Below are positions 1,267-22,930 of a stretch of DNA of 24,000 nucleotides, piece after piece. The notes below the pieces were generated by a model. The model ran no database searches. It was not told the DNA's origin and saw only the letters and a list, made by a program, of their open reading frames with translations. The stretch lies in NCBI GenBank assembly GCA_964650255.1, contig CAZYQT010000006.1, forward strand, positions 1 through 24,000, written 5' to 3'. The stretch's first letter is position 1. Every line of letters starts with the position of its first letter. This stretch comes from an uncultured Candidatus Saccharibacteria bacterium (GTDB taxonomy: Bacteria > Patescibacteriota > Doudnabacteria > UBA920). The position numbers and the translations under genes were made by a program.

Positions 1267-3486
1267 ATGGGACGTAAAAAAAAGCGGTCGCGCGATAATG
1301 ACGAGTCCGAATCTTCCATCCTTAAGTCCATCCCGAAACCAAAATTAGATTTAGCTTCTGAAAGCAAACGCGGCATTGCTGTGGTTGTTTTCGTAGTTTT
1401 AGCTGGGATTACAGCTTTGGCCATTCTCGATATTGCCGGTGGCTTGGGCCAATTTTTGAAAAAATTATTTTTTTTGTTGTTCGGAATCATCGCATACTTA
1501 ATGCCATTAGTTTTTTTGCTAATCGCTTATTTGTTGTTTAAGAGTACTCCAGACGAAGAAAACAAACACCCATACTTCCGCACTTACTTGGGAATGTTTT
1601 TAAGTGCTGGGAGCATAGCGGGATTGATCCACTCTTTTTCTATGGATGAACTTAATGGTGCAGTGGCCTTGGCAAATGCTGGTAAAGCAGGCGGCTGGCT
1701 CGGCGCATTATTTGGCGGGCCAATAATTGGGGCCTTTAAATTTTGGGCAGGTGATTTAATTTTAATTGGTATTCTCGTAATTGGAATTGTCATCACTTTG
1801 AATTTGTCGCCAATGCTGTGGTTCAAGAAAAAAGATGAAGAAGCAATACCAGAAACAACAGGGGAGAAAGTGAAAATTAATTCTTTGGCAGAGGCAGTTT
1901 TAGCGGCAGATAATAATACAGATGAAGAAAACGATGAAGAAGAACCAAGGCCAAAATTAACTCCTTCGATTAACTTAACTCCATCTGGCCCAAGCAAAGA
2001 AGATGAAGCGATTTCGAAAATGGAATCAATTATTATTGAAGACCGCCGCGACTGGAAGCTACCACCGTTTGATTTACTTGATGATAATAAAACCGAAGTT
2101 GATTCTGGAAACATTGAAAGTAATGTAACTATCATTCAAAAAACTTTAGCAGACTTTGGTATTGATGTAGAAATGGGAGAAGTGAATGTTGGCCCAACTG
2201 TGACGCAGTACACTCTTCGTCCAGCCACTGGTGTGAAGCTTTCACAAATTGCTGCTTTGCAAAATGATTTGGCGCTCGCGCTCGCTGCACACGCAATTCG
2301 TATGGAGCTACCTATCCCAGGCAAGGCGTTGGTCGGTATTGAAGTGCCAAACAAATCTACCGCGATCGTACGCCTTCGCGAAGTGATGCAAACTTCAGAC
2401 TTTGTGAACAACAAGGGCAAGCTCGCGCTCGCGCTTGGCCGCGATGTTGCTGGTCGCCCAATGATTGCTGACCTTGCCAAAATGCCGCACATGTTAATTG
2501 CTGGTGCTACTGGAACCGGAAAATCTGTGGCCATCAACAGTTTGTTTATTTCTTTGCTTTACCGCAACACTCCACAAGACATTAAGTTTATTGTGGTAGA
2601 CCCGAAGCGCGTGGAGCTTAATATGTACAACGGCATTCCGCATCTTTTGACTCCTGCCATTACTGAATCCGACAAAGCAGTTAATGCACTTAAGTGGGCT
2701 GTGGCGGAAATGGAAAGACGTTACAAGCTACTTGCCGAAGCTGGTAATCGAAACATTGCTGACTACAATGCTGCCACTGAACTGCATTTGCCTTACATTG
2801 TTATTATTGTTGATGAGTTAGCCGACCTTATGGCTGTTGCCCAGCAAGATGTTGAAGCTGCAATTGTGAGGCTGGCGCAAATGGCTCGTGCGGTTGGTAT
2901 TCACCTTATTCTTGCAACCCAGCGCCCAAGCGTGGAAGTTATTACTGGACTTATTAAAGCAAACATTACTTCGCGCGCTGCATTTGCTGTGGCATCGCAA
3001 GTCGACTCTCGTACTATTTTGGATTCATCGGGTGCAGAAAAACTTTTGGGCAATGGAGACATGTTGTTTGTTTCAGCAGAATTTAATAAGCCAAAGCGCG
3101 TACAAGGAGCTTTCGTTGGTGAACAAGAAGTGCGCAAAGTCGTTGACTTCTTTAAGAATCAAGCTGGTGCAGTAATTTACAACGAAGAAGTTACAGAAAA
3201 ACCAAAACGTGGTTTGGGAATTCCAGGTATGGGTGGTGGTGATGGCGGTAGTGATGAAGACGATTTGTTTGATGCAGCCAAGGAAGAAGTGATGCGTGCT
3301 GGAAAAGCTTCTGCTTCTTTGCTCCAGCGTCGCTTGCGTATTGGTTACGCCCGCGCTGCTCGTCTCCTCGACATATTAGAAGACAGGGGAATTATCGGGC
3401 CAGGTGATGGTGCCAAGCCTCGCGAAGTGTACGCCGTGTCCGATGCGGAACGCGCGGAGTATGGCAGCGAGACCGAAGAAGTTTAA
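1267..3486 (+). CDS. ftsK: DNA translocase FtsK/SpoIIIE
   Basis: N-terminal polytopic membrane region and an acidic linker. Motor domain with Walker A GATGTGKS and Walker B IVIIVDELADL. C-terminal gamma winged-helix (SLLQRRLRIGYARAARLLDILE). Confidence 0.95.
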   Translation: MGRKKKRSRDNDESESSILKSIPKPKLDLASESKRGIAVVVFVVLAGITALAILDIAGGLGQFLKKLFFLLFGIIAYLMPLVFLLIAYLLFKSTPDEENKHPYFRTYLGMFLSAGSIAGLIHSFSMDELNGAVALANAGKAGGWLGALFGGPIIGAFKFWAGDLILIGILVIGIVITLNLSPMLWFKKKDEEAIPETTGEKVKINSLAEAVLAADNNTDEENDEEEPRPKLTPSINLTPSGPSKEDEAISKMESIIIEDRRDWKLPPFDLLDDNKTEVDSGNIESNVTIIQKTLADFGIDVEMGEVNVGPTVTQYTLRPATGVKLSQIAALQNDLALALAAHAIRMELPIPGKALVGIEVPNKSTAIVRLREVMQTSDFVNNKGKLALALGRDVAGRPMIADLAKMPHMLIAGATGTGKSVAINSLFISLLYRNTPQDIKFIVVDPKRVELNMYNGIPHLLTPAITESDKAVNALKWAVAEMERRYKLLAEAGNRNIADYNAATELHLPYIVIIVDELADLMAVAQQDVEAAIVRLAQMARAVGIHLILATQRPSVEVITGLIKANITSRAAFAVASQVDSRTILDSSGAEKLLGNGDMLFVSAEFNKPKRVQGAFVGEQEVRKVVDFFKNQAGAVIYNEEVTEKPKRGLGIPGMGGGDGGSDEDDLFDAAKEEVMRAGKASASLLQRRLRIGYARAARLLDILEDRGIIGPGDGAKPREVYAVSDAERAEYGSETEEV

Positions 3487-3496
3487 CTTAAAAAAT

Positions 3497-3520
3497 AAAA
3501 GCGCCGCAAGGCGCTTTTAT
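3497..3520. terminator. Bidirectional intrinsic terminator between convergent ftsK and the trmB-like gene
   Basis: AAAA-GCGCC-gcaa-GGCGC-TTTT. Confidence 0.75.
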
Positions 3521-3525
3521 CTTTA

Positions 3526-4290
3526 TTAAATTTTTTCCCAAAACCCTTTAAACATTTCACGTAAGTTTTTAGCCATGACTGCATCATGCGTTTCTACTAA
3601 ATAGTGTGGATGTTGGTTAGTAACTATAAACAAAACATAATCACCAAGAACTGCATGTGTAGCAGTAAAGTCCACGGATTTATCCCAATACTTCACTTGT
3701 CGATTTTTATTCTTCACAGCATCGGCAATTTCTTTTTCCGAAGGTTTATTGTTTGTAATTAAGCGTGTACCAAAATCCTCTGGAAAAATTTCCCAATGAT
3801 GCTCAACCCAATCTTTATATTCTTGTAATATTGATGCATCTTGAAATCCCCACCAGTTTTTCTCATTAATGTTTTTGGCACTCTCAATCCAAATAGGTAA
3901 TTGCTTAAATAGAAAATCTTTTAATTGTGGCTCATCAATAAAACGAATTTTAGGAACAGAATACTGCTTTGATTTTGGCAAAGCCTGTAATTCCAAGATT
4001 GCCTGCTCAATAGCAGTCTTTTTTTGTTCAAGTTCCTGTTCTTGCGATTTATATAGAGTGCGGAGTTCTTCGGGGGGCGTGGCTGTGTAGTAGGTGGTGG
4101 TGCCGCCCAAGTCCTCTTGGATAATTCCTTTTTTGATAAGCTCCTTAGAAACGCTGTAAACAGTAGTTCTATTGATTTTTGATACTCGGGAAACGTCTGC
4201 AGCTGATAGTTTACCATTCTCTTGAATGCACAAATATACGGCGATTTCCTTATCTGTGAATCCTAATTCTTGCAAATATTCGTTTAGCAT
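3526..4290 (-). CDS. TrmB-family transcriptional regulator
   Basis: The N-terminal winged HTH is typical of TrmB (LGFTDKEIAVYLCIQENGKLSAADVSRVSKINRTTVYSVSKELIKKGII), followed by a coiled-coil linker and a C-terminal effector-like domain. Confidence 0.8.
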   Translation of the reverse strand: MLNEYLQELGFTDKEIAVYLCIQENGKLSAADVSRVSKINRTTVYSVSKELIKKGIIQEDLGGTTTYYTATPPEELRTLYKSQEQELEQKKTAIEQAILELQALPKSKQYSVPKIRFIDEPQLKDFLFKQLPIWIESAKNINEKNWWGFQDASILQEYKDWVEHHWEIFPEDFGTRLITNNKPSEKEIADAVKNKNRQVKYWDKSVDFTATHAVLGDYVLFIVTNQHPHYLVETHDAVMAKNLREMFKGFWEKI

Positions 4291-4296
4291 AGACTA

Positions 4297-4305
4297 ATTA
4301 TAGCA
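4297..4305 (-). promoter_or_regulatory. Extended -10 (TGCTATAAT) placed 6 nt before the trmB-like ATG; candidate leaderless promoter
   Basis: Minus strand reads TGCTATAAT-tagtct-ATG. Confidence 0.5.
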
Positions 4306-4389
4306 TGTTGTTGGAGATAAATCAACATATATTTTATGTTATAAATAAGCCATTTATCTTAAAATAATCTAACATTATTTGGAATACTC

Positions 4390-4418
4390 TTGACAAAATG
4401 TCAAAAACTTGATATACT
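4390..4418 (+). promoter_or_regulatory. Near-consensus sigma70 promoter of the hammerhead-containing operon, with an operator-like palindrome over the -35
   Basis: TTGACA (4390-4395)-17 nt-TATACT (4413-4418). The perfect palindrome TTGACAaaaTGTCAA spans 4390-4404. Confidence 0.7.
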
Positions 4419-4482
4419 GGTCTCAACAAAAATAAATTCTGGTGTAGCGAGCCAAAAATACGCAAAATTTTAGGAGGAAAAA

Positions 4483-4875
4483 ATGGTACCAAGTTTTGAC
4501 AGTAATGGCTTAGCTGATGGCCTTACGGAAATGGATGAGGCGTCCAAAGCTCGATTGGAAGAATGGAAGGAAGCAATTAACAAACTTCCTGATACTGAGG
4601 ACTTTGATACAGACACACTCTCCAATCAAGCTTACATCTTAATACAAGGGGCGCTAGATGTAGGTTTTGATGAACATAGATCCCATGATGTGTTCTATCA
4701 ATTCAATCAAGGTGATCGAGCTCTCTTAACTGAAAGTTGCAATTGCAGTAGCGGTAGTCTGTGCCCGGCTAGACAAGCGAAAGTTAGATTCGATGGAACA
4801 TGGAATGAAGCTTACGCCGAGATGGTCAAGCTTTTGAAAAATAAAGCTAACCAAATTCCACAACCACCTGTGTGA
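4483..4875 (+). CDS. Hypothetical acidic protein, 130 aa (operon ORF1)
   Basis: AGGAGG lies 6 nt upstream of the ATG. No family recognised. Confidence 0.65.
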   Translation: MVPSFDSNGLADGLTEMDEASKARLEEWKEAINKLPDTEDFDTDTLSNQAYILIQGALDVGFDEHRSHDVFYQFNQGDRALLTESCNCSSGSLCPARQAKVRFDGTWNEAYAEMVKLLKNKANQIPQPPV

Positions 4876-4898
4876 AAACAGTTAAATCTTTTAGGTTC

Positions 4899-4971
4899 GA
4901 GAGGTCCTATTAAAACCTCTCACTGTCTCGAAGTGAATACTTCGACTGATGAGCTCAAAAGAGCGAAACAG
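4899..4971 (+). ncRNA. 7-bp hairpin (4899-4921) plus type III hammerhead ribozyme (4923-4971), copy 1
   Basis: CUGUC|UCGAAG-UGAAUA-CUUCGA-CUGAUGA-GCUC-AAAA-GAGC-GAAA-CAG. All invariant core positions are present, with a GUC cleavage triplet. Predicted cleavage falls after C4927. Confidence 0.88.
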
Positions 4972-5045
4972 AAAATCCAGCATGTGACTGGTTCGCGGGC
5001 TGATAAGGATCGCGCGAGACATTAAGCAATAGGAGGAAATTAAAT

Positions 5046-5417
5046 ATGCAAAATTTGTTGACTAACAAATTAGAAGCTGACTTAGCAGCTGTAGTTGCCA
5101 CTGAAGCATTTAATGATGCTGCGCACGCTGCTGAGTGGAAATTTGTTGAGTATGTGAACATTAAACAATTTAATGGTTCCATATCAGCAACTGCTATATA
5201 TTCATCAGATGATGTGATATTAGTATACGCTAATGGCTATGGTGACAAAAACCATTTTGCTCATTCGTTTTTGAGGCACACCTTGGAGAAGGCGGGCTTC
5301 GCGTATGCTGAGATAAATCTATATTTATCAATTCACACTGGATTAAGGCCTTGTTTAGTAATTTCTGATTACGATAAGTCTGTGAGTCCAGCTGAGTATA
5401 TATCTAGCAGGCTTTAA
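5046..5417 (+). CDS. Hypothetical protein, 123 aa (operon ORF2, bracketed by the two ribozymes)
   Basis: AGGAGG at 5031-5036 lies 9 nt upstream of the ATG. No family recognised. Confidence 0.65.
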   Translation: MQNLLTNKLEADLAAVVATEAFNDAAHAAEWKFVEYVNIKQFNGSISATAIYSSDDVILVYANGYGDKNHFAHSFLRHTLEKAGFAYAEINLYLSIHTGLRPCLVISDYDKSVSPAEYISSRL

Positions 5418-5649
5418 TTGCGCTGTTTAAATAAACAGTTCGCAATATCCCAGAGCTTAGTCTGACTGGGGGATATCTAATTTAATGCGCTATGAAAGAC
5501 CGAAAAGCGCGAAGCAGTATGTGACTGTGGACAGTGAATTAGACTAAATATCATGTCGTGAGACAGCAATATTTAGAAATTAATAAGCTCCACGTGATAG
5601 CCGTTTGTCTATCAACCTCCCCGCTCAAGTAGGTTTAAACCTTGAGCAC

Positions 5650-5722
5650 AGGAGATTCTAATAAAATCTCCTTCTGTCTCGAAGTGAATGCTTCGACTGA
5701 TGAGGCCAAAAGGACGAAACAG
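5650..5722 (+). ncRNA. 7-bp hairpin (5650-5672) plus type III hammerhead ribozyme (5674-5722), copy 2
   Basis: CUGUC|UCGAAG-UGAAUG-CUUCGA-CUGAUGA-GGCC-AAAA-GGAC-GAAA-CAG. The core is identical to copy 1. Stem II has one G.A mismatch and one compensated pair. Predicted cleavage falls after C5678. Confidence 0.8.
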
Positions 5723-5755
5723 ACAAATATGATAGTCAATCAATAGGGGGTGTGT

Positions 5756-6163
5756 ATGTTAAAGATTGAAAATGATGAGTTTAAGAACTTTCCTGTTGAT
5801 CAGCAGGTAAATATTATCCATAAAGCAATTATGGCTGATGATGATATAGAATTTTTCTTTTATGAACTGAAATGCGGTGTGGAAGAAAAAAAGTCCATTT
5901 ACAAGGCTCACTGTAAAAATCAAACGAGAGATGGGTCAATAGTTCGAATGTTTGAAGCTATGGATTTAAGTGATGTTGAAAAACAGGAATTAGCAGAGTG
6001 CGCGATTACTGCAATTATCTCAAATAAATTTTTGAGCTCTGCAAGATATAGATATGACATGCTCTCAAAATATCTTAGTTCAGACAAGCAGGCAAAGTTT
6101 TCTGCCGTGCTTGAGGATCGTGAGCATCAATCTTCATTGCGTAAAAGTGTTCTAGGTATATGA
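5756..6163 (+). CDS. Hypothetical protein, 135 aa (operon ORF3)
   Basis: The track starts at GTG 5750. I prefer ATG 5756 because AGGGGG (5745-5750) would then be a properly spaced SD. No family recognised. Confidence 0.6.
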   Translation: MLKIENDEFKNFPVDQQVNIIHKAIMADDDIEFFFYELKCGVEEKKSIYKAHCKNQTRDGSIVRMFEAMDLSDVEKQELAECAITAIISNKFLSSARYRYDMLSKYLSSDKQAKFSAVLEDREHQSSLRKSVLGI

Positions 6164-6184
6164 ACCAAAACACGCATTTATTTT

Positions 6185-6212
6185 GCCGGTTGTTAATTCA
6201 GCCGGCTTTTTT
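6185..6212 (+). terminator. Intrinsic terminator of the three-ORF operon
   Basis: GCCGGUUG-uuaauu-CAGCCGGC (8 bp including one U.G) followed by TTTTTTgTTTT. Confidence 0.7.
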
Positions 6213-6233
6213 GTTTTCCCAGTTTAGTCTGGA

Positions 6234-6324
6234 AAACAGAAGGATATTTGCTAAGCAGGCAGTCACGGTAAGCGCAGCCGCGAAGCGGCGTGAGCACTGT
6301 CTGCGTGCAGATATCCTTCTGTTT
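6234..6324. repeat. Long imperfect GC-rich inverted repeat (extended hairpin), function unknown
   Basis: Perfect 14-bp outer arms: AAACAGAAGGATAT at 6234-6247 and ATATCCTTCTGTTT at 6311-6324. Inner 9-bp stem GCAGGCAGT/ACTGTCTGC. Apical GCCGC-gaa-GCGGC. Confidence 0.6.
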
Positions 6325-6356
6325 CATCAGTCTCAAAATATGCTATGATAAATGAT

Positions 6357-7337
6357 ATGCCAATTGAATTTGAAACAAAAAAACTGTCTATGGAGACCCT
6401 GGGGGAGTACCTGGCTGCTGTGCGCAACGAGCTAGGCCTGACTTTAGAAGAGGTTTCTCAGAAAACCGGGGTTTATGAAAAATTCATCCATTATATAGAG
6501 ACTGGAAAGTACCATTTATTACCTCCTGGGGTGTATGTACTTGGTTTCCTTAAAAAACTGGCAGGAGTTTACAAGATTTCAGCTGATACTCTCCTGGAAC
6601 AATATCGCAAAGAGCTAGGTATAGTAGAGCATGCGGCCTCTGAGCGACTGAGGGCCAAAAAAACTTGGAAAGAGCGTTTTTCCAAAATCACCATAACACC
6701 TAAACTGCTCACTGTTACTGGCGGCGGGGTAGTCGCTGTGGTCGCTTTCTTCTATATAGTGTTCCAAGTGTTCGCTATTAATAAGACTCCTGCTCTTACT
6801 ATAAACGAACCTAAGAATGATGCAGTAATTTCTGGCACATCAGTGAACGTTGCAGGAAAAACTGAGCCAGGCATAGTGGTATCTATAAACGGACAAAATG
6901 TGTTTGTAGATCAATCCGGCGATTTTCATACCACCATTGGTGTAGCTCCTGGACAAAAAGAGTTACGAATTGATGCGTCCAATAAATTCGGCAAGAAAAA
7001 TGAGCAGGTACTAGCCCTGCGCGTTGAAGAAGAGCCGCATGTGGCTGGGGTGGAAACTACGGTGCCATCAGAATTGCAAATGGAAATTAAGTTTACTAAA
7101 GCTACAAAGATTATTGTAAACAAAGACGGTACAGAGCTACCGCTTGAGCAGGTTCCTAAGGGGGCAGTAAAACAGGTTACAGCCCAGGACAAAATTAGTT
7201 TAACTACTTTCGATGCGGGTAACACACAGATAACTTTGAATGGAAAACCTGTTGGTACAATTGGAAAAGTAGGTGAAAAAATTACTATTCCTTTTTCAAA
7301 AGAAGCGGCTTCGCTAATAGAACAGGCATCAGAATAA
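6357..7337 (+). CDS. RodZ-like protein: XRE-type HTH, one transmembrane helix and a RodZ_C/DUF4115-like C-terminal domain
   Basis: HTH LGLTLEEVSQKTGVYEKFIHYIETGK. TM helix GGGVVAVVAFFYIVFQVFAI. The C-terminus (ITLNGKPVGTIGKVGEKITIPF) resembles RodZ_C. I prefer ATG 6357 over 6345 because TGCTATGAT at 6341-6349 looks like the -10. Confidence 0.65.
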   Translation: MPIEFETKKLSMETLGEYLAAVRNELGLTLEEVSQKTGVYEKFIHYIETGKYHLLPPGVYVLGFLKKLAGVYKISADTLLEQYRKELGIVEHAASERLRAKKTWKERFSKITITPKLLTVTGGGVVAVVAFFYIVFQVFAINKTPALTINEPKNDAVISGTSVNVAGKTEPGIVVSINGQNVFVDQSGDFHTTIGVAPGQKELRIDASNKFGKKNEQVLALRVEEEPHVAGVETTVPSELQMEIKFTKATKIIVNKDGTELPLEQVPKGAVKQVTAQDKISLTTFDAGNTQITLNGKPVGTIGKVGEKITIPFSKEAASLIEQASE

Positions 7338-7341
7338 TTTT

Positions 7342-7386
7342 AAAAACTTTAACCAAACTTTAGAAAAGTTTTACATCAGTTTTATC
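7342..7386 (+). promoter_or_regulatory. Conserved 45-nt upstream motif, copy A (upstream of recA)
   Basis: Aligns without gaps to 12122-12166 at 37/45 identity. It contains AAACTTTA repeats and TTTACATCARTTTTATC. Confidence 0.5.
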
Positions 7387-7426
7387 TACTAACAGTTATA
7401 ATTGTTGGGTAATTAAAGAAAAGTAT

Positions 7427-8515
7427 ATGGCAAAAAAAACTAAAGAACCAAAGACCACTGCACCAAAGGCAACTTCCACAGCCGGCAAGTGGGGAGCAGT
7501 GGAAAGCGCAATGGATCAAATTCGCGATAAATTCGGCGATGGTAGCATCATGAAAATTTCCGATACCCAAAAACTGAACGTAGAAGCAATTCCTACTGGC
7601 AGTATTAGTTTGGATATGGCCCTGGGTGTTGGCGGAATTCCTAAGGGGCGCATTGTAGAAGTGTATGGTCCAGAAAGTTCTGGTAAAACAACTTTAACTT
7701 TGCACATGATTGCTGAAGTGCAAAAGAAAGGTGGCTTGGCGGCATTTATTGATGCAGAGCACGCGCTCGACCCTGACTACGCAAAACGTATCGGAGTTAA
7801 TTTAGAAGATTTGTTAATTTCTCAACCAGACAGTGGTGAGCAAGCTTTAGATATTACAGAGACTTTGGTGCGGAGTAATGCGTTAGATTTAATTGTTGTT
7901 GACTCAGTAGCAGCATTAACACCGCGTGCGGAAATTGAAGGTGAAATGGGTGCGTCGCACATGGGGCTTCAAGCAAGACTTATGTCGCAGGCGCTTCGTA
8001 AGTTAACTGGAATTATTTCTAAATCCAACACGACTGTCATTTTCATTAACCAGATTCGTATGAAAATTGGGGTAATGTTTGGTAACCCAGAAACAACTAC
8101 TGGTGGGAATGCTTTGAAGTTCTATGCATCGGTTCGAGTGGAAATTCGCCGCAGCGCGCAAATTAAAAATGGTGATAAAATTATTGGCAACCGTACCAAG
8201 GCCAAGGTGGTGAAGAACAAAGTGGCGCCGCCGTTCAAAGTTGCTGAGTTTGATATTATGTACAACGAAGGTATTTCTTCTGAAGGAGATGTTCTCGACA
8301 CTGGCTTATTGTTTGAAATAATTAAGAAGAACGGTAACTCGTATTCTTACAAAGACATTAAGCTTGGGGTTGGCCGCGAAACAGCGAAAACTTTTCTAAA
8401 AGAAAATAAGGATATCTTTGAGCAAATAGATAAAGATTTGCGTACCCAGCTAGATAGCGGAGCTGGTATTCCTGAAAAGTTGGTAGAAGCTGAAGAAGAA
8501 ATCGACGAAGATTAA
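7427..8515 (+). CDS. recA: Recombinase RecA
   Basis: Full-length RecA with Walker [10 protein letters not shown], the L1/L2 region ([32 protein letters not shown]) and an acidic C-terminal tail. Confidence 0.97.
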
Positions 8516-15966: not shown

Positions 15967-16827
15967 ATGAATTTTATCAAAAAATTATCATCAGCAGTTT
16001 TATTGGCAGCAGCTGCTTTGGTGTTGATCGCGCCTAGCTTTTTGTTAACTCCACGGACTGTCCAGGCTGAATCTTGTAGCCCATTATTTTTAGTGCGACC
16101 TTCTCAGAATCAAGCTGGCTCCGACGGCGTGATTGTTAAACCAGCAGACGCTAAGAAAGTTTATTTAGATGTAAAATTTAGTCTTAACGGCCCGAGCACA
16201 TGTCAAGGACCAGCATACGTTGTGGCCAAGTGGAACAATGCAAAAACTACAATCACAAATAATGTAGACAAAGTTTTTAATTACACCAGCGTCCCCGCAA
16301 GAGAAGGCGTGTATAGAATTGAACTACAGATTCCGAATAGTGGTTTCGGTAAAGAGGTTACTGTAACTGTTGCCGATGACGTTCTTCATCCGCCAGCCGG
16401 TGGGATTGGGACTGAGAATGGAAGTCACGTGCAGCCAACTGACAAGCCAACGAATGGTAGCAAGGGCGGGTTTGTACCTTGTGGCAATACTGCAGATAAT
16501 CCTTGCCAAATTGGTCATCTATTTTCCGCATTTATTGTAATCATCAATTATCTAATGGCCATGGCAGGGTTTGTGGCAGTACTAGCAATTATTTTTGCCG
16601 GGTTTATGATGATCTATTCTCAAGGACAAGAGAAGCTTAAAGAAGCCAAGGGCCGTTTTACAGGAGCAATCTTTGGGTTGGTGTTAGTGGCGGCGGCATT
16701 TGTCTTGATTAACTCTCTTTTCGCTGGCAGCTTGAGTATTGGTGTAAAAGATGGCGGTAAAATTTTATCAGACCCTCTCGAGTATATTAATACGAGAAGT
16801 AGTACTACTAATTCAAATACAAGATAA
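15967..16827 (+). CDS. Pilin-like paralog P1: signal peptide, beta-rich N-terminal domain and C-terminal VirB2/TrbC-like two-helix module
   Basis: Signal peptide ...TVQA|E. The C-terminus reads IINYLMAMAGFVAVLAIIFAGFMMIYSQGQEKLKEAKGRFTGAIFGLVLVAAAFVLI. Confidence 0.75.
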   Translation: MNFIKKLSSAVLLAAAALVLIAPSFLLTPRTVQAESCSPLFLVRPSQNQAGSDGVIVKPADAKKVYLDVKFSLNGPSTCQGPAYVVAKWNNAKTTITNNVDKVFNYTSVPAREGVYRIELQIPNSGFGKEVTVTVADDVLHPPAGGIGTENGSHVQPTDKPTNGSKGGFVPCGNTADNPCQIGHLFSAFIVIINYLMAMAGFVAVLAIIFAGFMMIYSQGQEKLKEAKGRFTGAIFGLVLVAAAFVLINSLFAGSLSIGVKDGGKILSDPLEYINTRSSTTNSNTR

Positions 16828-16832
16828 TACCT

Positions 16833-17231
16833 ATGAAGCATTTACTAGCGCTGAATAATAATTCCGGCGGCATCAAAATAAATAGCAACACCGGCAATAA
16901 TTCAAATCAGACTGGTTCTGGTTCGGGCACTGGTACTGGTGGTAATGCCAATAATTTTACTTTGGTTAAACCGGGTAAGATTACTGATGTTTTCAATGGC
17001 AAGTCTTTGCTTCAAATTGGAACTATGTTCATCAATTTTCTTTTGGCCATGATTGTAATTGCTGCAGTGGTGGTAATTGTTATTGCCGGATTCAAGATGG
17101 TTTTAGGTGGTGCCAACGAATCGCAAATCGCCAAGCAAAAAAAAGCCATTGTCTATGCCATTGCTGGTTTGGTGGTAGCGTTTATGTCGTTTGCCATTGT
17201 CCAAATTGTTCAAAACTTTATTCAGAAATAA
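16833..17231 (+). CDS. Pilin-like paralog P2: N/G/S/T-rich N-terminus with no obvious signal peptide
   Basis: The C-terminus reads FINFLLAMIVIAAVVVIVIAGFKMVLGGANESQIAKQKKAIVYAIAGLVVAFMSFAIVQIV. Confidence 0.7.
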   Translation: MKHLLALNNNSGGIKINSNTGNNSNQTGSGSGTGTGGNANNFTLVKPGKITDVFNGKSLLQIGTMFINFLLAMIVIAAVVVIVIAGFKMVLGGANESQIAKQKKAIVYAIAGLVVAFMSFAIVQIVQNFIQK

Positions 17232-17232
17232 A

Positions 17233-18153
17233 ATGCGAAAAACTGTGCAAAATTTGAAACTATTTTTTTACAGGCTGGGGCTAACTATTTTTGTCGCGTT
17301 CTTATTGATGGGGAGTAGTTCTACAACTGCCCATGCTCAAGCCAGCGCTACAGCCACAGACGGACGATGTGTAACAATCAAAGTATTTCTAATTAATTCA
17401 GCGGCCAACACCCCAGCCAATATAACCAGAATTAAAATTTCTGATGCTGGTAAATACGCTCTTCAGGTTGATATCAAAACTAATTTCGGCTGTACAGTTA
17501 ATGGAAAGTACACGTTAAAAGGTCAAACTTATGAGAATCAAAATGGTACCAATACTACCCCGCAAGAAACTTTTTATTTTGCTAACAGGCAGCCTGTCAC
17601 AACAAATGATTTTGCAAAGCGAACGGATGCCTTTGGCAGGCCAGCACATCCTTATTCGTATGTATATACTCTAGATTATGATAGCGACGATCTTTCCACT
17701 AATCTTTCCGCTCATATTACAATTACTTTTACGGACGACAAGGGTAATTCAGGTTCAACCCCAGGAAGCGGCGGTGGCAGTGGTAGCGGCAGCGGTACGG
17801 GCAGTAACAGTAATGTTCCTCCAAACAACAGTGTTCCGAATGAAGATATAAAAACTGATACAGATTTTACTTTAGTTAACTTAGATGATCCAATTGGCAC
17901 TTTTGATAATTTACTAAATTTCGGCTCAGTTCCGGAAGCAATTGTTAGCCTCATCAGGATATTGTTTATATTAATTGGTATTTCCGCAGTGATAGTCATA
18001 ATTATTGCTGGGTTCCGAATGGTTGTAGACAGCGGAAATGAGACGCAAATGAAGAAAGCCAAGGAAGCAATTACGTGGTCAATCGTTGGTCTAATAGTTT
18101 CTATTTTAGCGTTTAGTATTGTGGCAATTATTCAAAGAATTATTCAAGGTTAA
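17233..18153 (+). CDS. Pilin-like paralog P3: signal peptide, beta-rich domain, Gly/Ser linker and pilin module
   Basis: The ATG at 17233 sits 1 nt after the P2 stop codon, so the tracked upstream extension is an artifact. Signal peptide ...TAHA|QA. The C-terminus reads LIRILFILIGISAVIVIIIAGFRMVVDSGNETQMKKAKEAITWSIVGLIVSILAFSIV. Confidence 0.75.
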   Translation: MRKTVQNLKLFFYRLGLTIFVAFLLMGSSSTTAHAQASATATDGRCVTIKVFLINSAANTPANITRIKISDAGKYALQVDIKTNFGCTVNGKYTLKGQTYENQNGTNTTPQETFYFANRQPVTTNDFAKRTDAFGRPAHPYSYVYTLDYDSDDLSTNLSAHITITFTDDKGNSGSTPGSGGGSGSGSGTGSNSNVPPNNSVPNEDIKTDTDFTLVNLDDPIGTFDNLLNFGSVPEAIVSLIRILFILIGISAVIVIIIAGFRMVVDSGNETQMKKAKEAITWSIVGLIVSILAFSIVAIIQRIIQG

Positions 18154-20042: not shown

Positions 20043-20867
20043 GTGAAAATTTCGCAAAAATTTTTGAATAAATTTTCCATGGCCATGCTACTGCTATTGA
20101 GCATGGCTTTTTTGGGTGTTGGTTTTGTATTTAAAGCCCATCCAGCTGAGGCAGCAACGATTGATGTGTGTATCAATCGTAGCAATGGCAATCTAGATTA
20201 CCCAACTAATAATCAGTGTCCAACAAATTTTGAATTAGCTACTGGAATCTCCACTCAGTATGGCGGTGTTTGCATTGCTCAAGAAGAAGATACAGGGCGT
20301 TTCGGAATAGTTTATCCTACTGGCGAATATGAATTGGATAGAAACGGTAAAACTTGTGTCTTAAGTTCAGACCACGCAACCCCAATTGGTGATTTTGTAA
20401 GATTGAGAACAACTGGAACCGGTGGTGGTAGTGGGGACCCTGTTGATCCAGGTGGTAGTGGTTCAGGGCCAGGTTCTGGTTCCGGCAGTGGAAGCGGTTC
20501 AGGCTCAGGGTCTGGATCGGGATCATCGACAACAAGTAATGCTGCCTGCGATCCACCACAAGAAGGCTTCCATAAGGTTGGGCCACTTTGTGTTCCCAAT
20601 AGCCCATTCACTAACAAAGATGCTCCGATTAACTCTCCAACAGCAGCTGGGCTTGCCGTAAAGATCATCAAAATAGCATTGTATTTTGCAGGCATAGTGG
20701 CAGTAATTATGATGATTATTGGTGGTTATCAGGTCATGACTGCTGGCGCGAATGCAACCCAAGCCACTGATGGTCGCAAAACCCTTACCAATGCTATTAT
20801 TGGCTTAGTCATAGTGATTTTGTCGTACATTGTCATCCAGGCTATTACTAATTACCTCACTAAATAA
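20043..20867 (+). CDS. Pilin-like paralog P8: signal peptide, Cys-containing N-terminal domain, long Gly/Ser linker and pilin module
   Basis: GTG start; an internal ATG start is possible. Signal peptide ...PAEA|A. Linker: (GS)n. Module: IIKIALYFAGIVAVIMMIIGGYQVMTAGANATQATDGRKTLTNAIIGLVIVILSYIVIQAI. Confidence 0.75.
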   Translation: MKISQKFLNKFSMAMLLLLSMAFLGVGFVFKAHPAEAATIDVCINRSNGNLDYPTNNQCPTNFELATGISTQYGGVCIAQEEDTGRFGIVYPTGEYELDRNGKTCVLSSDHATPIGDFVRLRTTGTGGGSGDPVDPGGSGSGPGSGSGSGSGSGSGSGSGSSTTSNAACDPPQEGFHKVGPLCVPNSPFTNKDAPINSPTAAGLAVKIIKIALYFAGIVAVIMMIIGGYQVMTAGANATQATDGRKTLTNAIIGLVIVILSYIVIQAITNYLTK

Positions 20868-21052: not shown

Positions 21053-22930
21053 ATGGGTAAAATTATTAAAAATATCATCTTAATCCTGATTGGATTTTTG
21101 ATTATCTCTGTGGTGATTGCCGCCTTTACCACTCACAAAGAAACCAAGGTAGTAGCGTTGTCCGAAGTTGGGCAAATGATTAAAGATGATAAAGTTGAGA
21201 CTTTAGAAGTTAGCTCCTCGGAATTAGAAGTTAAACTTAAGGGTGATAATACAAAACAAAAAGCCAACCTTGGTTTGAATACAGACATCCCGAAGTATTT
21301 TGTAGACAGTGGTGTGCCAGCAGACAAATTGGCGAATGTAAAAATTGAATTTAAAACTCCAAGTGCTGCTAGCGAAGTTGCTGGCGCGATTTTGCCATTC
21401 TTAATTCCGTTCGTGTTAATTGCTTTGTTCATTTATTTCCTAATGCGCCAAGTGCAGGGTTCAAACAATCGCGCTTTAACTTTTGGACAGAGTTCAGTGA
21501 AGTTATCTGATGAGCAAAAGAACAAAGTGCGTTTTGCAGATGTAGCTGGTGCGAAAGAGGCAAAAGAAGAGTTGTCCGAAATTGTGCAGTTCTTAAAATT
21601 TCCACAAAAGTTTTTAGCGTTAGGTGCAAAAATCCCTAAAGGTGTTTTGTTGCTTGGTTCTCCGGGTGTTGGTAAGACTATGTTGGCTCGTGCAGTTGCC
21701 GGGGAAGCGAACGTACCGTTCTTCCATATTAGTGGTTCTGAGTTCGTAGAAATGTTTGTCGGTGTTGGTGCATCTCGTGTGCGTGATTTATTTAAGAAAG
21801 CAAAGCGCAATGCTCCTTGTATTGTGTTCATCGATGAAATTGATGCTGTTGGTCGCCAGCGGGGAGCAGGGCTCGGCGGTGGTCATGATGAACGCGAACA
21901 AACCTTGAACCAAATCTTAGTTGAGATGGATGGTTTTGAAACAGACACAAATGTAATCGTAGTAGCAGCGACCAACCGTCCAGATGTTTTGGATCCTGCG
22001 CTTCTTCGTCCCGGCCGGTTTGATCGTCAGGTCATTTTGGATTTACCAGACATTAATGACCGAGAAGCGATTTTGCAAATCCACAGTAAAAACAAACCGT
22101 TTGGCACTGGCGTAAATCTTCGCAAGATTGCTGAACGCACCCCTGGATTTTCAGGAGCCGATTTAGCTAACTTAGTTAATGAAGCGGCGATTTTGGCGGC
22201 TCGTACAGATAAAAAAGTTATAGATAACGAGGATTTAAAGGAAGCGATTGAAAAGATTGTTGTGGGTCCATCTCGCAAAAGCCACCTAATGTCTGATTAT
22301 GAAAAGAAGGTAACAGCTTACCACGAAGGTGGTCATGCCTTGGTGGGGGCGGTGTTGCCAGAAGCTGACCCTGTCCATAAAGTGACTATTCTTTCACGTG
22401 GTCGTGCTCTTGGATATACTTTAAAGTTGCCGGTTGAAGACAAGCACATGCATACCAAACAAAGTTTCTTGGATGAAATTGCATCCGCCATGGGTGGGTA
22501 TGCAGCAGAAAAATTGGTGTTTGGTGAATTAACCACGGGCGCCTCTAATGACCTGGAAAAGGCAACGAAATCTGCTCGACGATTGGTAACCCAGTTTGGT
22601 ATGAGTGATGTTATGGGCCCTGTTGTGTTGGGCGATCGCCACGAAAATGTTTTTCTGGGACGTGATCTTGGCGAACAAAGAAATTACAGTGAAGCTACTG
22701 CTCAACAAATTGATGCCGAGGTGCGCCGAATTTTAGTTGATGCAGAAGAGCGAGCCACTCAAATTATGACTCAGCACCGTGCCTATTTAGATATCATCGC
22801 AGATCGGTTGGTGAAAGAAGAAACTTTGGAACAGGAGGCCTTCACGGAAATAGTTAAGGATATTATCCCTCCAGATAAAAAGATGGTTCCTGAATTCAAG
22901 AATACTGACTTAGATAACGAAGTGGAGTAG
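21053..22930 (+). CDS. ftsH: ATP-dependent zinc metalloprotease FtsH
   Basis: N-terminal transmembrane helices, Walker A GSPGVGKT, Walker [10 protein letters not shown] and the HEGGHA zinc site. The tracked start at 20951 overlaps the tRNA, so ATG 21053 (MGKIIKNI...) is the real start. Confidence 0.95.

Follow-up and report, generated by a model that had tools for sequence, protein, structure and literature searches.

Hammerhead ribozymes clustered around single small genes, mostly of unknown function, were described in prophage-like regions in 2011 (PMC3088659) and again in later reviews (PMC6155905, PMC6765202). The examples of Perreault et al. (2011) include a triple at ardA in Agrobacterium tumefaciens, together with Azorhizobium caulinodans and Clostridium scindens (PMC3088659). 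Such clustered bacterial hammerheads cleave in vitro and in E. coli and have been proposed to process polycistronic RNA (PMC3088659; PMC6765202; PMC6155905), and the role of bacterial and phage hammerheads is still termed largely elusive (PMC6765202). Here we describe a comparable locus in a stretch of 24,000 nucleotides (the window) from an uncultured Candidatus Saccharibacteria bacterium (assembly GCA_964650255.1, contig CAZYQT010000006.1, positions 1 to 24,000). Two type III hammerhead ribozymes, HH1 at 4923–4971 and HH2 at 5674–5722, both on the + strand, divide three small open reading frames (ORFs) that lie between a predicted promoter and a predicted terminator. Judging from their sequence and setting, HH1 and HH2 quite probably act together to process a polycistronic mRNA into hairpin-capped monocistronic mRNAs.

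The two hammerheads and their hairpins

Read directly on the + strand, positions 4923–4971 run CUGUC UCGAAG UGAAUA CUUCGA CUGAUGA GCUC AAAA GAGC GAAA CAG. An earlier note on this DNA had proposed a canonical type III hammerhead at this site, and its reading of the sequence is correct base for base. Stem I consists of 6 bp closed by a hexaloop; stem II has 4 bp, opens with the G10.1-C11.1 pair and carries an AAAA loop; and stem III, which is open, has 4 bp including A15.1-U16.1. All of the invariant core positions (C3–A9, G12–A14 and C17 within the GUC triplet) are present, and the type III topology that the note had assigned is borne out by the order of the sequence elements and by covariance-model alignments. 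The position of the GUC triplet agrees with the cut the note had predicted between C4927 and U4928, and the ORF list places HH1 where it had been said to lie, between ORF1 (4483–4875) and ORF2 (5046–5417).

The Rfam type III model, which had been suggested as a check, gave a divided answer. RF00008 (Hammerhead_3) matched HH1 over its full length with all core positions aligned (E 1.4e-7 in a search of 301 nt and 1.1e-5 over the whole window), at a score of 40.2 bits, below the gathering score of 48.5. Because HH1 scores under this curated threshold, a default Rfam scan of the window reports a tRNA only, both hammerheads being sub-threshold. The shortfall arises because stem III is only 4 bp long and the loops depart from the model consensus. 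A covariance model made solely from IMG/VR phage sequences (R2, built from the hits of model R1) matched HH1 with 68.4 bits (E 6e-18). The pattern CTGTC-N14-24-CTGATGAG-N8-16-CGAAACAG is present twice in the window, the expectation from 100 shuffles being 0.00, and the minimum-free-energy fold of 4895–4980 comprises an upstream hairpin with stems I and II (z -3.6). Rfam scans found no other ribozyme class in the window up to an E value of 10, or in related loci up to 0.01. We conclude from the sequence that HH1 is a motif well beyond chance and a real type III hammerhead, for which self-cleavage is predicted.

The earlier interpretation was incomplete, not wrong: HH1 is one half of a pair, forms a composite with an upstream hairpin and belongs to a large phage-associated family. 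The second copy, HH2, which the earlier note did not contain, was found by a permissive Rfam scan (36.5 bits) and scores 63.4 bits with R2 (E 2e-16); its predicted cut falls between C5678 and U5679. The CUGAUGA, GAAA and GUC|U elements are legible in both copies, and their core columns align to RF00008, R1 and R2. In both, loops close stems I and II, and the open stem III bears the 5' and 3' ends. Each ribozyme sits with its hairpin in a 75-nt direct repeat (4901–4975 and 5652–5726), the two units being 83% identical and 751 nt apart. Compared with HH1, stem II of HH2 shows a compensatory change from U-A to C-G plus a G.A mismatch at 10.2/11.2. Loop 1 reads UGAAUA in HH1 and UGAAUG in HH2, with an A at the fourth loop position that is rare in the family (one of 55 phage sequences).

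Folding identified a hairpin directly upstream of each ribozyme on the same strand. Hairpin 1 (4899–4921) has 7 bp (GAGAGGU / ACCUCUC) and a 9-nt loop, hairpin 2 (5650–5672) has 8 bp (AGGAGAUU / AAUCUCCU) and a 7-nt loop, and both end 1 nt before CUGUC. The stems of the two hairpins differ in sequence with their pairing retained, and an alignment shows hairpin 1 kept along with the ribozyme in three related contigs (L137, L140 and L142). Beyond the 75-nt hairpin-ribozyme module, the window contains no repeats resembling long terminal repeats (LTRs).

A phage-associated hairpin-ribozyme family

The motif pattern was found in more than 120 viral contigs among the IMG/VR matches listed, and 73 of the 130 pattern matches listed there are exactly 49 nt long with the architecture of the window copies. 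We aligned 55 unique phage 49-mers with the two window copies. Standard pairs fill 99.7% of the pair cells in this alignment of 57 sequences, against 36–51% in slid controls, and there are 238 cells with double (compensatory) changes against 64 +/- 10 after shuffling, a number that none of 500 shuffles reached. Among the phage 49-mers, loop 1 follows U-G-(U/A)-G-U-(G/A) and loop 2 is AAAA or GAAA; this conservation of both loops across the family suggests a tertiary loop-loop contact, which hammerheads of this type require to cleave fast at low Mg2+. Stem III of neighbouring phage copies is still 4 bp long and covaries (CUG/CAG, CCG/CGG, UUG/CAA), and the triplet is GUC, GUA or GUU. Since the phage-only model R2 gives both window ribozymes the high scores reported above, they are, by sequence, clear members of the phage-associated hairpin-ribozyme family.

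Across 100 phage loci, model R1 detected 178 copies. Where loci with several copies were checked (for example L031, L088 and L095), the copies, up to seven per locus, all lie on one strand. Nearly all phage-locus ribozymes (103 of 107) lie between genes and run in the direction of their neighbours; the median distance from the upstream stop to CUGUC is 33 nt, and that from the ribozyme to the next start is 24 nt. The flanking ORFs have a median length of about 110 aa and are mostly without a PHROG function, a few being anti-restriction, HNH and ATPase genes.

The upstream hairpin is likewise a feature of the family. The 40 nt upstream of CUGUC fold with a mean of -13.7 kcal/mol, compared with -5.0 for random 40-mers of the same locus and -2.7 for the downstream sequence (Wilcoxon p 2e-17), and 82% of 106 phage contexts reach -8 kcal/mol or lower. 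The hairpin ends 0–2 nt from CUGUC in 73 of 87 phage cases. Where a co-directional ORF ends at most 100 nt upstream, 72 of 87 contexts have the hairpin, as against 5 of 17 where there is no such ORF (Fisher p 2.7e-5). Because its presence tracks an upstream co-directional ORF, the hairpin appears to have its role at the 3' end of the upstream gene; these results suggest that it serves that gene by capping the 3' end of the upstream cleavage product, and that the ribozyme can fold without it.

Both window copies display the features of the phage module, namely a 49-nt ribozyme, a hairpin 0–2 nt upstream and co-directional genes. They share with it stems of 6, 4 and 4 bp, the CUGUC/GAAACAG stem III, the abutting hairpin and the order stop, hairpin, ribozyme, start; the phage consensus has a UGNGUR hexaloop and an AAAA or GAAA tetraloop. 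The window differs in the A at position 4 of loop 1, in its replicon, a bacterial chromosome, and in a longer distance to the next start (74 nt for HH1 and 33 nt for HH2, against the phage median of 24 nt).

A near-identical copy of the window module was sought among viral contigs, none of which has the same stem I. BLAST for a cultured phage with the same type III module yielded nothing but a hammerhead of type I, in Cellulophaga phage phi18:3. This element (L144 5990–6045; NC_021794.1, about 21,910–21,965, - strand) is unannotated, reads GAUUAA-CUGAAGAG-UCC AGAA GGA-CGAAAC-AAGG..CCUU-GUC-UUAAUC, lies in an array of very small hypothetical genes, some 900 nt upstream of ardA, and is unreported by Rfam at E values up to 0.01. 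In some phage members of the family, positions 10.1 and 11.1 are both U (CUGAUGA-U...U-GAAA) and the triplet is GUA, and a subgroup has an extra stem III base (CUGAUA...GAAAUCAG); both kinds depart from the usual G10.1-C11.1 rule, and deviating examples are found at L031:8492-8540, L088:7644-7692, L095:4177-4225 and L055:5942-5992. The gene directly before the hairpin and ribozyme encodes, in many viral contigs of marine origin, a conserved protein of about 305–335 aa (40–74% mutual identity), its ORF ending about 35 nt before the latter (L003, L006, L026, L031, L039, L057, L105, L107, L113 and L118); the L003 representative has no PHROG match.

The predicted operon, its island and related arrays

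The unit from promoter to terminator spans 4390–6216 on the + strand in the order ORF1, HH1, ORF2, HH2, ORF3. A consensus scan placed a sigma-70-like promoter at 4390–4418 (TTGACA-17-TATACT with a TG extension), which matches 11 of 12 consensus positions and is the top site within 3400–7500. A predicted intrinsic terminator with an 8-bp GC-rich stem and a T run marks the end of the operon at 6185–6216, and L137 has its equivalent after the last cassette.

ORF1 (4483–4875, 130 aa) has a strong Shine-Dalgarno sequence, AGGAGG, and two homologues with 62–70% identity, in L140 and L142, each followed by a hammerhead; it has no match in Pfam, PHROGs or PADLOC. Its 5' leader (4427–4486, GCGAGCCAAAAATACGCAAAATTTTAGGAGGA) recurs in L137 at 4112–4175, after the ribozyme and before an unrelated 145-aa ORF. 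ORF2 (5046–5417, 123 aa) is bracketed by HH1 and HH2 and preceded by a leader with a Shine-Dalgarno sequence (4972–5045). Alignment shows this leader conserved in L142 at 3202–3275 (CCAGYATGTGACTGG, GGGCTGATAAGGATCG, then AGGAGG), and the ORFs downstream of it in the two contigs are not homologous. From these recurrences it seems that different cassettes reuse leaders in addition to ribozymes. We also considered a riboswitch-like structure for the leader after HH1, and found no significant predicted structure (z -0.4).

A search of 5.8 billion proteins with ORF2 returned only the query itself. Among 1.84 billion representatives, the sole non-self match was a weak, repeat-like one to a 2191-aa protein (P0005), which matches ORF2 residues 7–55 in six stretches (E 8.7e-8, 25% identity); this match suggests that the N-terminal motif of ORF2 is repeat-like. 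A single-sequence AlphaFold2 model of ORF2 had a predicted local distance difference test score (pLDDT) of 69, and no fold in the PDB matched it with an E value below 0.04. ORF3 (5756–6163, 135 aa) has a single match, a 96%-identical variant of the same locus.

Between ORF2 and hairpin 2 lies an unusually long spacer (5418–5649), which we tentatively list as a candidate decayed ribozyme-plus-leader unit because it contains two short stretches, AAAAGCGCGAAGCAG and CAGTATGTGACTG (5515–5527), that are similar to, and colinear with, the 3' portion of HH1 and the leader. Local alignment gave p ~0.03-0.06 for a third, decayed ribozyme here and the covariance model finds none, so that this unit is kept only as tentative. 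Downstream of the operon, between the terminator and the start of rodZ at 6345, a near-perfect hairpin of about 100 nt occupies 6225–6335 on the + strand (minimum free energy -57.5 kcal/mol, z -9.2). Hairpins of the same architecture stand before rodZ in L130, L132 and L133, where an inner motif (..GCCTAAGCAGGCAG..CTGCCTGCGTGCA..) is shared and the outer stems differ; the pre-rodZ hairpin may be a conserved leader or a small RNA. A 62-aa frame at 6160–6348 ('ORF4'), which overlaps the terminator and this long hairpin, is probably not a gene.

The window is part of a Candidatus Saccharibacteria chromosome and encodes FtsK, a RodZ-like protein, RecA, an exonuclease-helicase, LspA, ComM, FtsH and tRNA-Leu. 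No phage, integrase or PHROG matches were found within its 24 kb. Divergent from the operon, at 3526–4290 on the - strand, is a gene for a TrmB-family winged-helix regulator (Pfam PF01978, E 9.9e-15). A search with the RodZ-like protein identified six Candidatus Saccharibacteria or Patescibacteria genomes (71–78% identity), in all of which ftsK-rodZ-recA-dinG is contiguous and free of hammerheads. Because these relatives keep the block contiguous without a hammerhead, the segment 3487–6344, comprising the TrmB-like gene on the - strand and the ribozyme operon on the + strand, is on this comparison of sequences a lineage-specific insertion in a variable ftsK-rodZ hotspot. Three relatives have about 100–180 nt between ftsK and rodZ, and two have 700–800 nt; the L132 gap accommodates a NUDIX gene, a homologue of TrmB (84% identity) and a gene of 374 aa. 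Composition was considered as a sign of foreign origin, and the G+C content of the island (0.35–0.42) is not distinct from its surroundings. Elsewhere in the window, three paralogues (15967–16827, 17191–18153 and 20043–20867) share a C-terminal type IV secretion pilin-like domain (PF18895); proteins with this domain are common in candidate-phyla-radiation genomes.

A metagenome scan for stem I of HH1 returned six contigs. L137 is syntenic with the window (dinG-recA-rodZ), with about 71% DNA identity over the RecA-RodZ stretch, and carries a hairpin and ribozyme with 96% identity to HH1 over 81 nt; in this contig a different ORF, of 145 aa, comes after the ribozyme, and then a terminator. L140 and L142 have a hammerhead at the same junction, 3' of the ORF1 homologue; its stems I and II differ by compensatory changes, its triplet is GUU, and in one of the two contigs U7 has become A. 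The order in L140 is ftsK, NUDIX, TrmB (- strand), four small ORFs with a ribozyme at all three junctions, rodZ and recA. Its last cassette (7682–8122) starts with MKILVIEDNP, by eye like the N-terminus of a receiver domain, and since it begins in this way some cassettes may encode signalling proteins. In L136 and L138 a co-directional TrmB-family gene is followed by arrays of three and two ribozymes, respectively. A TrmB-family gene thus adjoins the ribozyme array in five of five loci with enough flank (the window, L140, L142, L136 and L138), and we infer that the TrmB-like protein regulates the ribozyme operon. The ORFs in these five arrays are small and not conserved.

Relatives of the window carry two to three ribozyme copies per array. 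Within the candidate-phyla-radiation subset 99.1% of pair cells are standard and ten pairs are changed on both sides. Of the 13 hammerheads matched in related contigs, one alone passes the Rfam threshold (L140:7036-7090, 49.0 bits), and neither window copy does. The Hammerhead_3 threshold appears too strict for this subfamily with a short stem III, almost all of which it misses.

Proposed mRNA processing, its alternatives and known systems

If the ribozymes process the operon mRNA as we propose, a single transcript would run from the promoter through ORF1, ORF2 and ORF3 to the terminator. Each ribozyme would fold as it is transcribed, the loops of stems I and II docking and the 4-bp stem III pairing with the CUGUC that emerges behind the hairpin. 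Cuts after C17, at 4927/4928 and 5678/5679, followed by dissociation of the short stem III, would leave three monocistronic mRNAs. The upstream products would end in a stable hairpin and a 6–7-nt tail with a 2',3'-cyclic phosphate, the hairpin replacing a terminator hairpin and shielding them from 3' exonucleases; the last cistron would be capped by the terminator hairpin itself. The downstream products would begin with a 5'-OH flush with the stem I hairpin, and would thus have a protected 5' end and a defined leader before the ribosome-binding site. The net outcome would be that stability and translation of neighbouring accessory genes are uncoupled, with upstream context removed from each ribosome-binding site and mRNA stability equalised or set gene by gene. 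Both the chemistry of hammerhead cleavage and the protection given by terminal stem-loops in bacterial mRNA decay are established; at the window locus itself co-transcription, cleavage and effects on mRNA stability are what we infer.

Several points weigh against this account. The promoter and terminator are known only as consensus matches, and promoter-like sites are no commoner in the region than in shuffled sequence. Both window copies lie under the Hammerhead_3 gathering score (40.2 and 36.5 against 48.5 bits). HH2 is alone among the 57 aligned sequences in having G.A at 10.2/11.2, and by nearest-neighbour energies its hammerhead fold lies about 4 kcal/mol above the minimum free energy of a competing fold; because that fold is predicted to be the better one, HH2 may be a weaker ribozyme that cuts slowly or not at all. 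ORFs in the phage loci were called crudely, with a minimum of 50 aa. The stabilising role proposed for the terminal hairpins draws on the correlation of ORF with hairpin and on general knowledge of mRNA decay. In Firmicutes, RNase J1 degrades the 5'-OH product of glmS, so it is uncertain whether the downstream mRNA would gain or lose stability.

Other accounts assign the modules a role in exchange or in the formation of circles. It seems unlikely that hairpin-ribozyme modules are the borders of cassettes exchanged between phages and the ultra-small Saccharibacteria, of which a pair can release, and perhaps circularise, a single-gene RNA such as 4928–5678. If this were so, each ribozyme would be at once an mRNA-processing site and a joint in a novel type of ribozyme-delimited cassette array under a dedicated TrmB-family regulator. 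Distinctly unlikely is the version in which the modules are mainly sites of homologous recombination that swap gene cassettes between phages and Saccharibacteria, cleavage being secondary or a phage leftover. A near-identical ribozyme, 1 nt from HH1, does stand amid different genes in three genomes (ORF1 and ORF2 in the window, ORFs of 106 and 84 aa in L140, and the 145-aa ORF downstream in L137), the ftsK-rodZ gap is a variable hotspot, the window modules are 83% identical over 75 nt, and 5418–5649 may hold a decayed unit. Recombination sites alone, however, need no compensatory changes that keep three helices together with an invariant catalytic core, and there is no recombinase gene near the operon. 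Recombination at the modules is moreover compatible with mRNA processing, the two ideas not being exclusive. It is very unlikely that the pair serves to make a circular RNA, in which HH1 and HH2 would free a 751-nt segment (4928–5678) containing ORF2 and its Shine-Dalgarno sequence, the CUGUC at its 3' end would pair with GAAACAG near its 5' end to re-form a hammerhead, and the ribozyme or an RtcB-type ligase would join the ends, as in retrozymes and viroid-like RNAs, into a translatable circle. Stem III (CUGUC / GAAACAG) and stem I are identical in the two copies, such that the chimera would be fully paired, and stem III is short and nearly uniform across the family. Plant retrozymes make circles from pairs of type III hammerheads (PMC4918200), and Perreault et al. 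raised the possibility for bacterial clusters; when they sought circular or spliced products, however, they found none (PMC3088659). A ribozyme at every gene junction, with up to seven per operon, and a hairpin that tracks the upstream ORF fit linear processing, HH2 is possibly weak, and the window contains no reverse transcriptase or ligase gene.

We consider it highly improbable that the ribozymes are conditional switches, with cleavage controlled by a metabolite, an ion or a protein such as the TrmB-like regulator or a cassette product, and tuning ORF2 and ORF3. The destabilising G.A in stem II of HH2 and its competing fold would suit a switch, as would the conserved leader 3' of HH1, and regulated cleavage was suggested for slow phage variants by Perreault et al. 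(PMC3088659). Against this, HH1 is a compact consensus ribozyme that lacks any extra domain, no significant structure is predicted for the leader between HH1 and ORF2, and the Rfam scan of the window matched no ligand-binding family. That the modules are remnants of a degraded prophage, inactive and now functionless, is extremely improbable. The island is lineage-specific, the only relatives of ORF2 and ORF3 are near-identical copies of the window locus, and HH2 carries a mismatch, all of which a relic might show; yet the core is intact in both copies, hairpin and ribozyme are far better conserved than the adjoining coding DNA, with substitutions that are compensatory, ORF1 is kept at 62–70% identity, and no phage genes lie nearby.

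Processing of a polycistronic mRNA is also the role proposed for the clusters of Perreault et al. (2011), which are the closest known systems. Like the window, these have several same-strand hammerheads around individual small genes, as HH1 and HH2 bracket ORF2, and the anti-restriction gene ardA found among them has a counterpart in the anti-restriction gene beside members of our phage set. They differ in that the window is a Saccharibacteria chromosome of the candidate phyla radiation, with a TrmB-like neighbour and no integrase or phage genes nearby; the proximity to prophages or integrases that characterises those clusters is absent, though the island is an insertion. An upstream hairpin abutting the ribozyme is not mentioned by Perreault et al. 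(PMC3088659) and may be described in other literature. Our literature search found nothing on hammerheads together with Saccharibacteria or Patescibacteria.

In synthetic insulators of the RiboJ type, the hammerhead of sTRSV and a hairpin stand before the ribosome-binding site, stripping upstream context and fixing the 5' end. There the hairpin lies downstream of the ribozyme; in the window it lies upstream and apparently serves the preceding gene. RF00008, which covers the type III hammerheads of viroids, satellites and plants, has the same core and topology as the window copies and aligns to them over its full length, although the window copies are sub-threshold and lie between genes in an mRNA, whereas the RF00008 members belong to circular RNA replicons. 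Retrozymes (PMC4918200, PMC7761336) also have two type III hammerheads in direct repeat bracketing a segment of several hundred nucleotides; they are non-coding, possess LTR-like repeats and target-site duplications, and circularise, whereas the window segment is an mRNA cistron inside an operon.

Since clustered hammerheads flanking small ORFs were described in 2011, the window locus is not a new kind of system; it is a good but fairly ordinary example of clusters known since then and overturns no current view. Its additions are modest: a Saccharibacteria chromosome free of phage genes, the association with TrmB, a hairpin-ribozyme composite linked to the upstream gene, and a gap in the Rfam threshold. 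The link of the hairpin to the upstream gene points to a design in which both cleavage products are hairpin-capped. Viral contigs carry the family in great numbers, yet it falls under the Rfam threshold, with the result that routine annotation misses it. With one promoter, three small genes, two ribozymes and one terminator, the window locus offers a compact natural test case for the clustered hammerheads already described.

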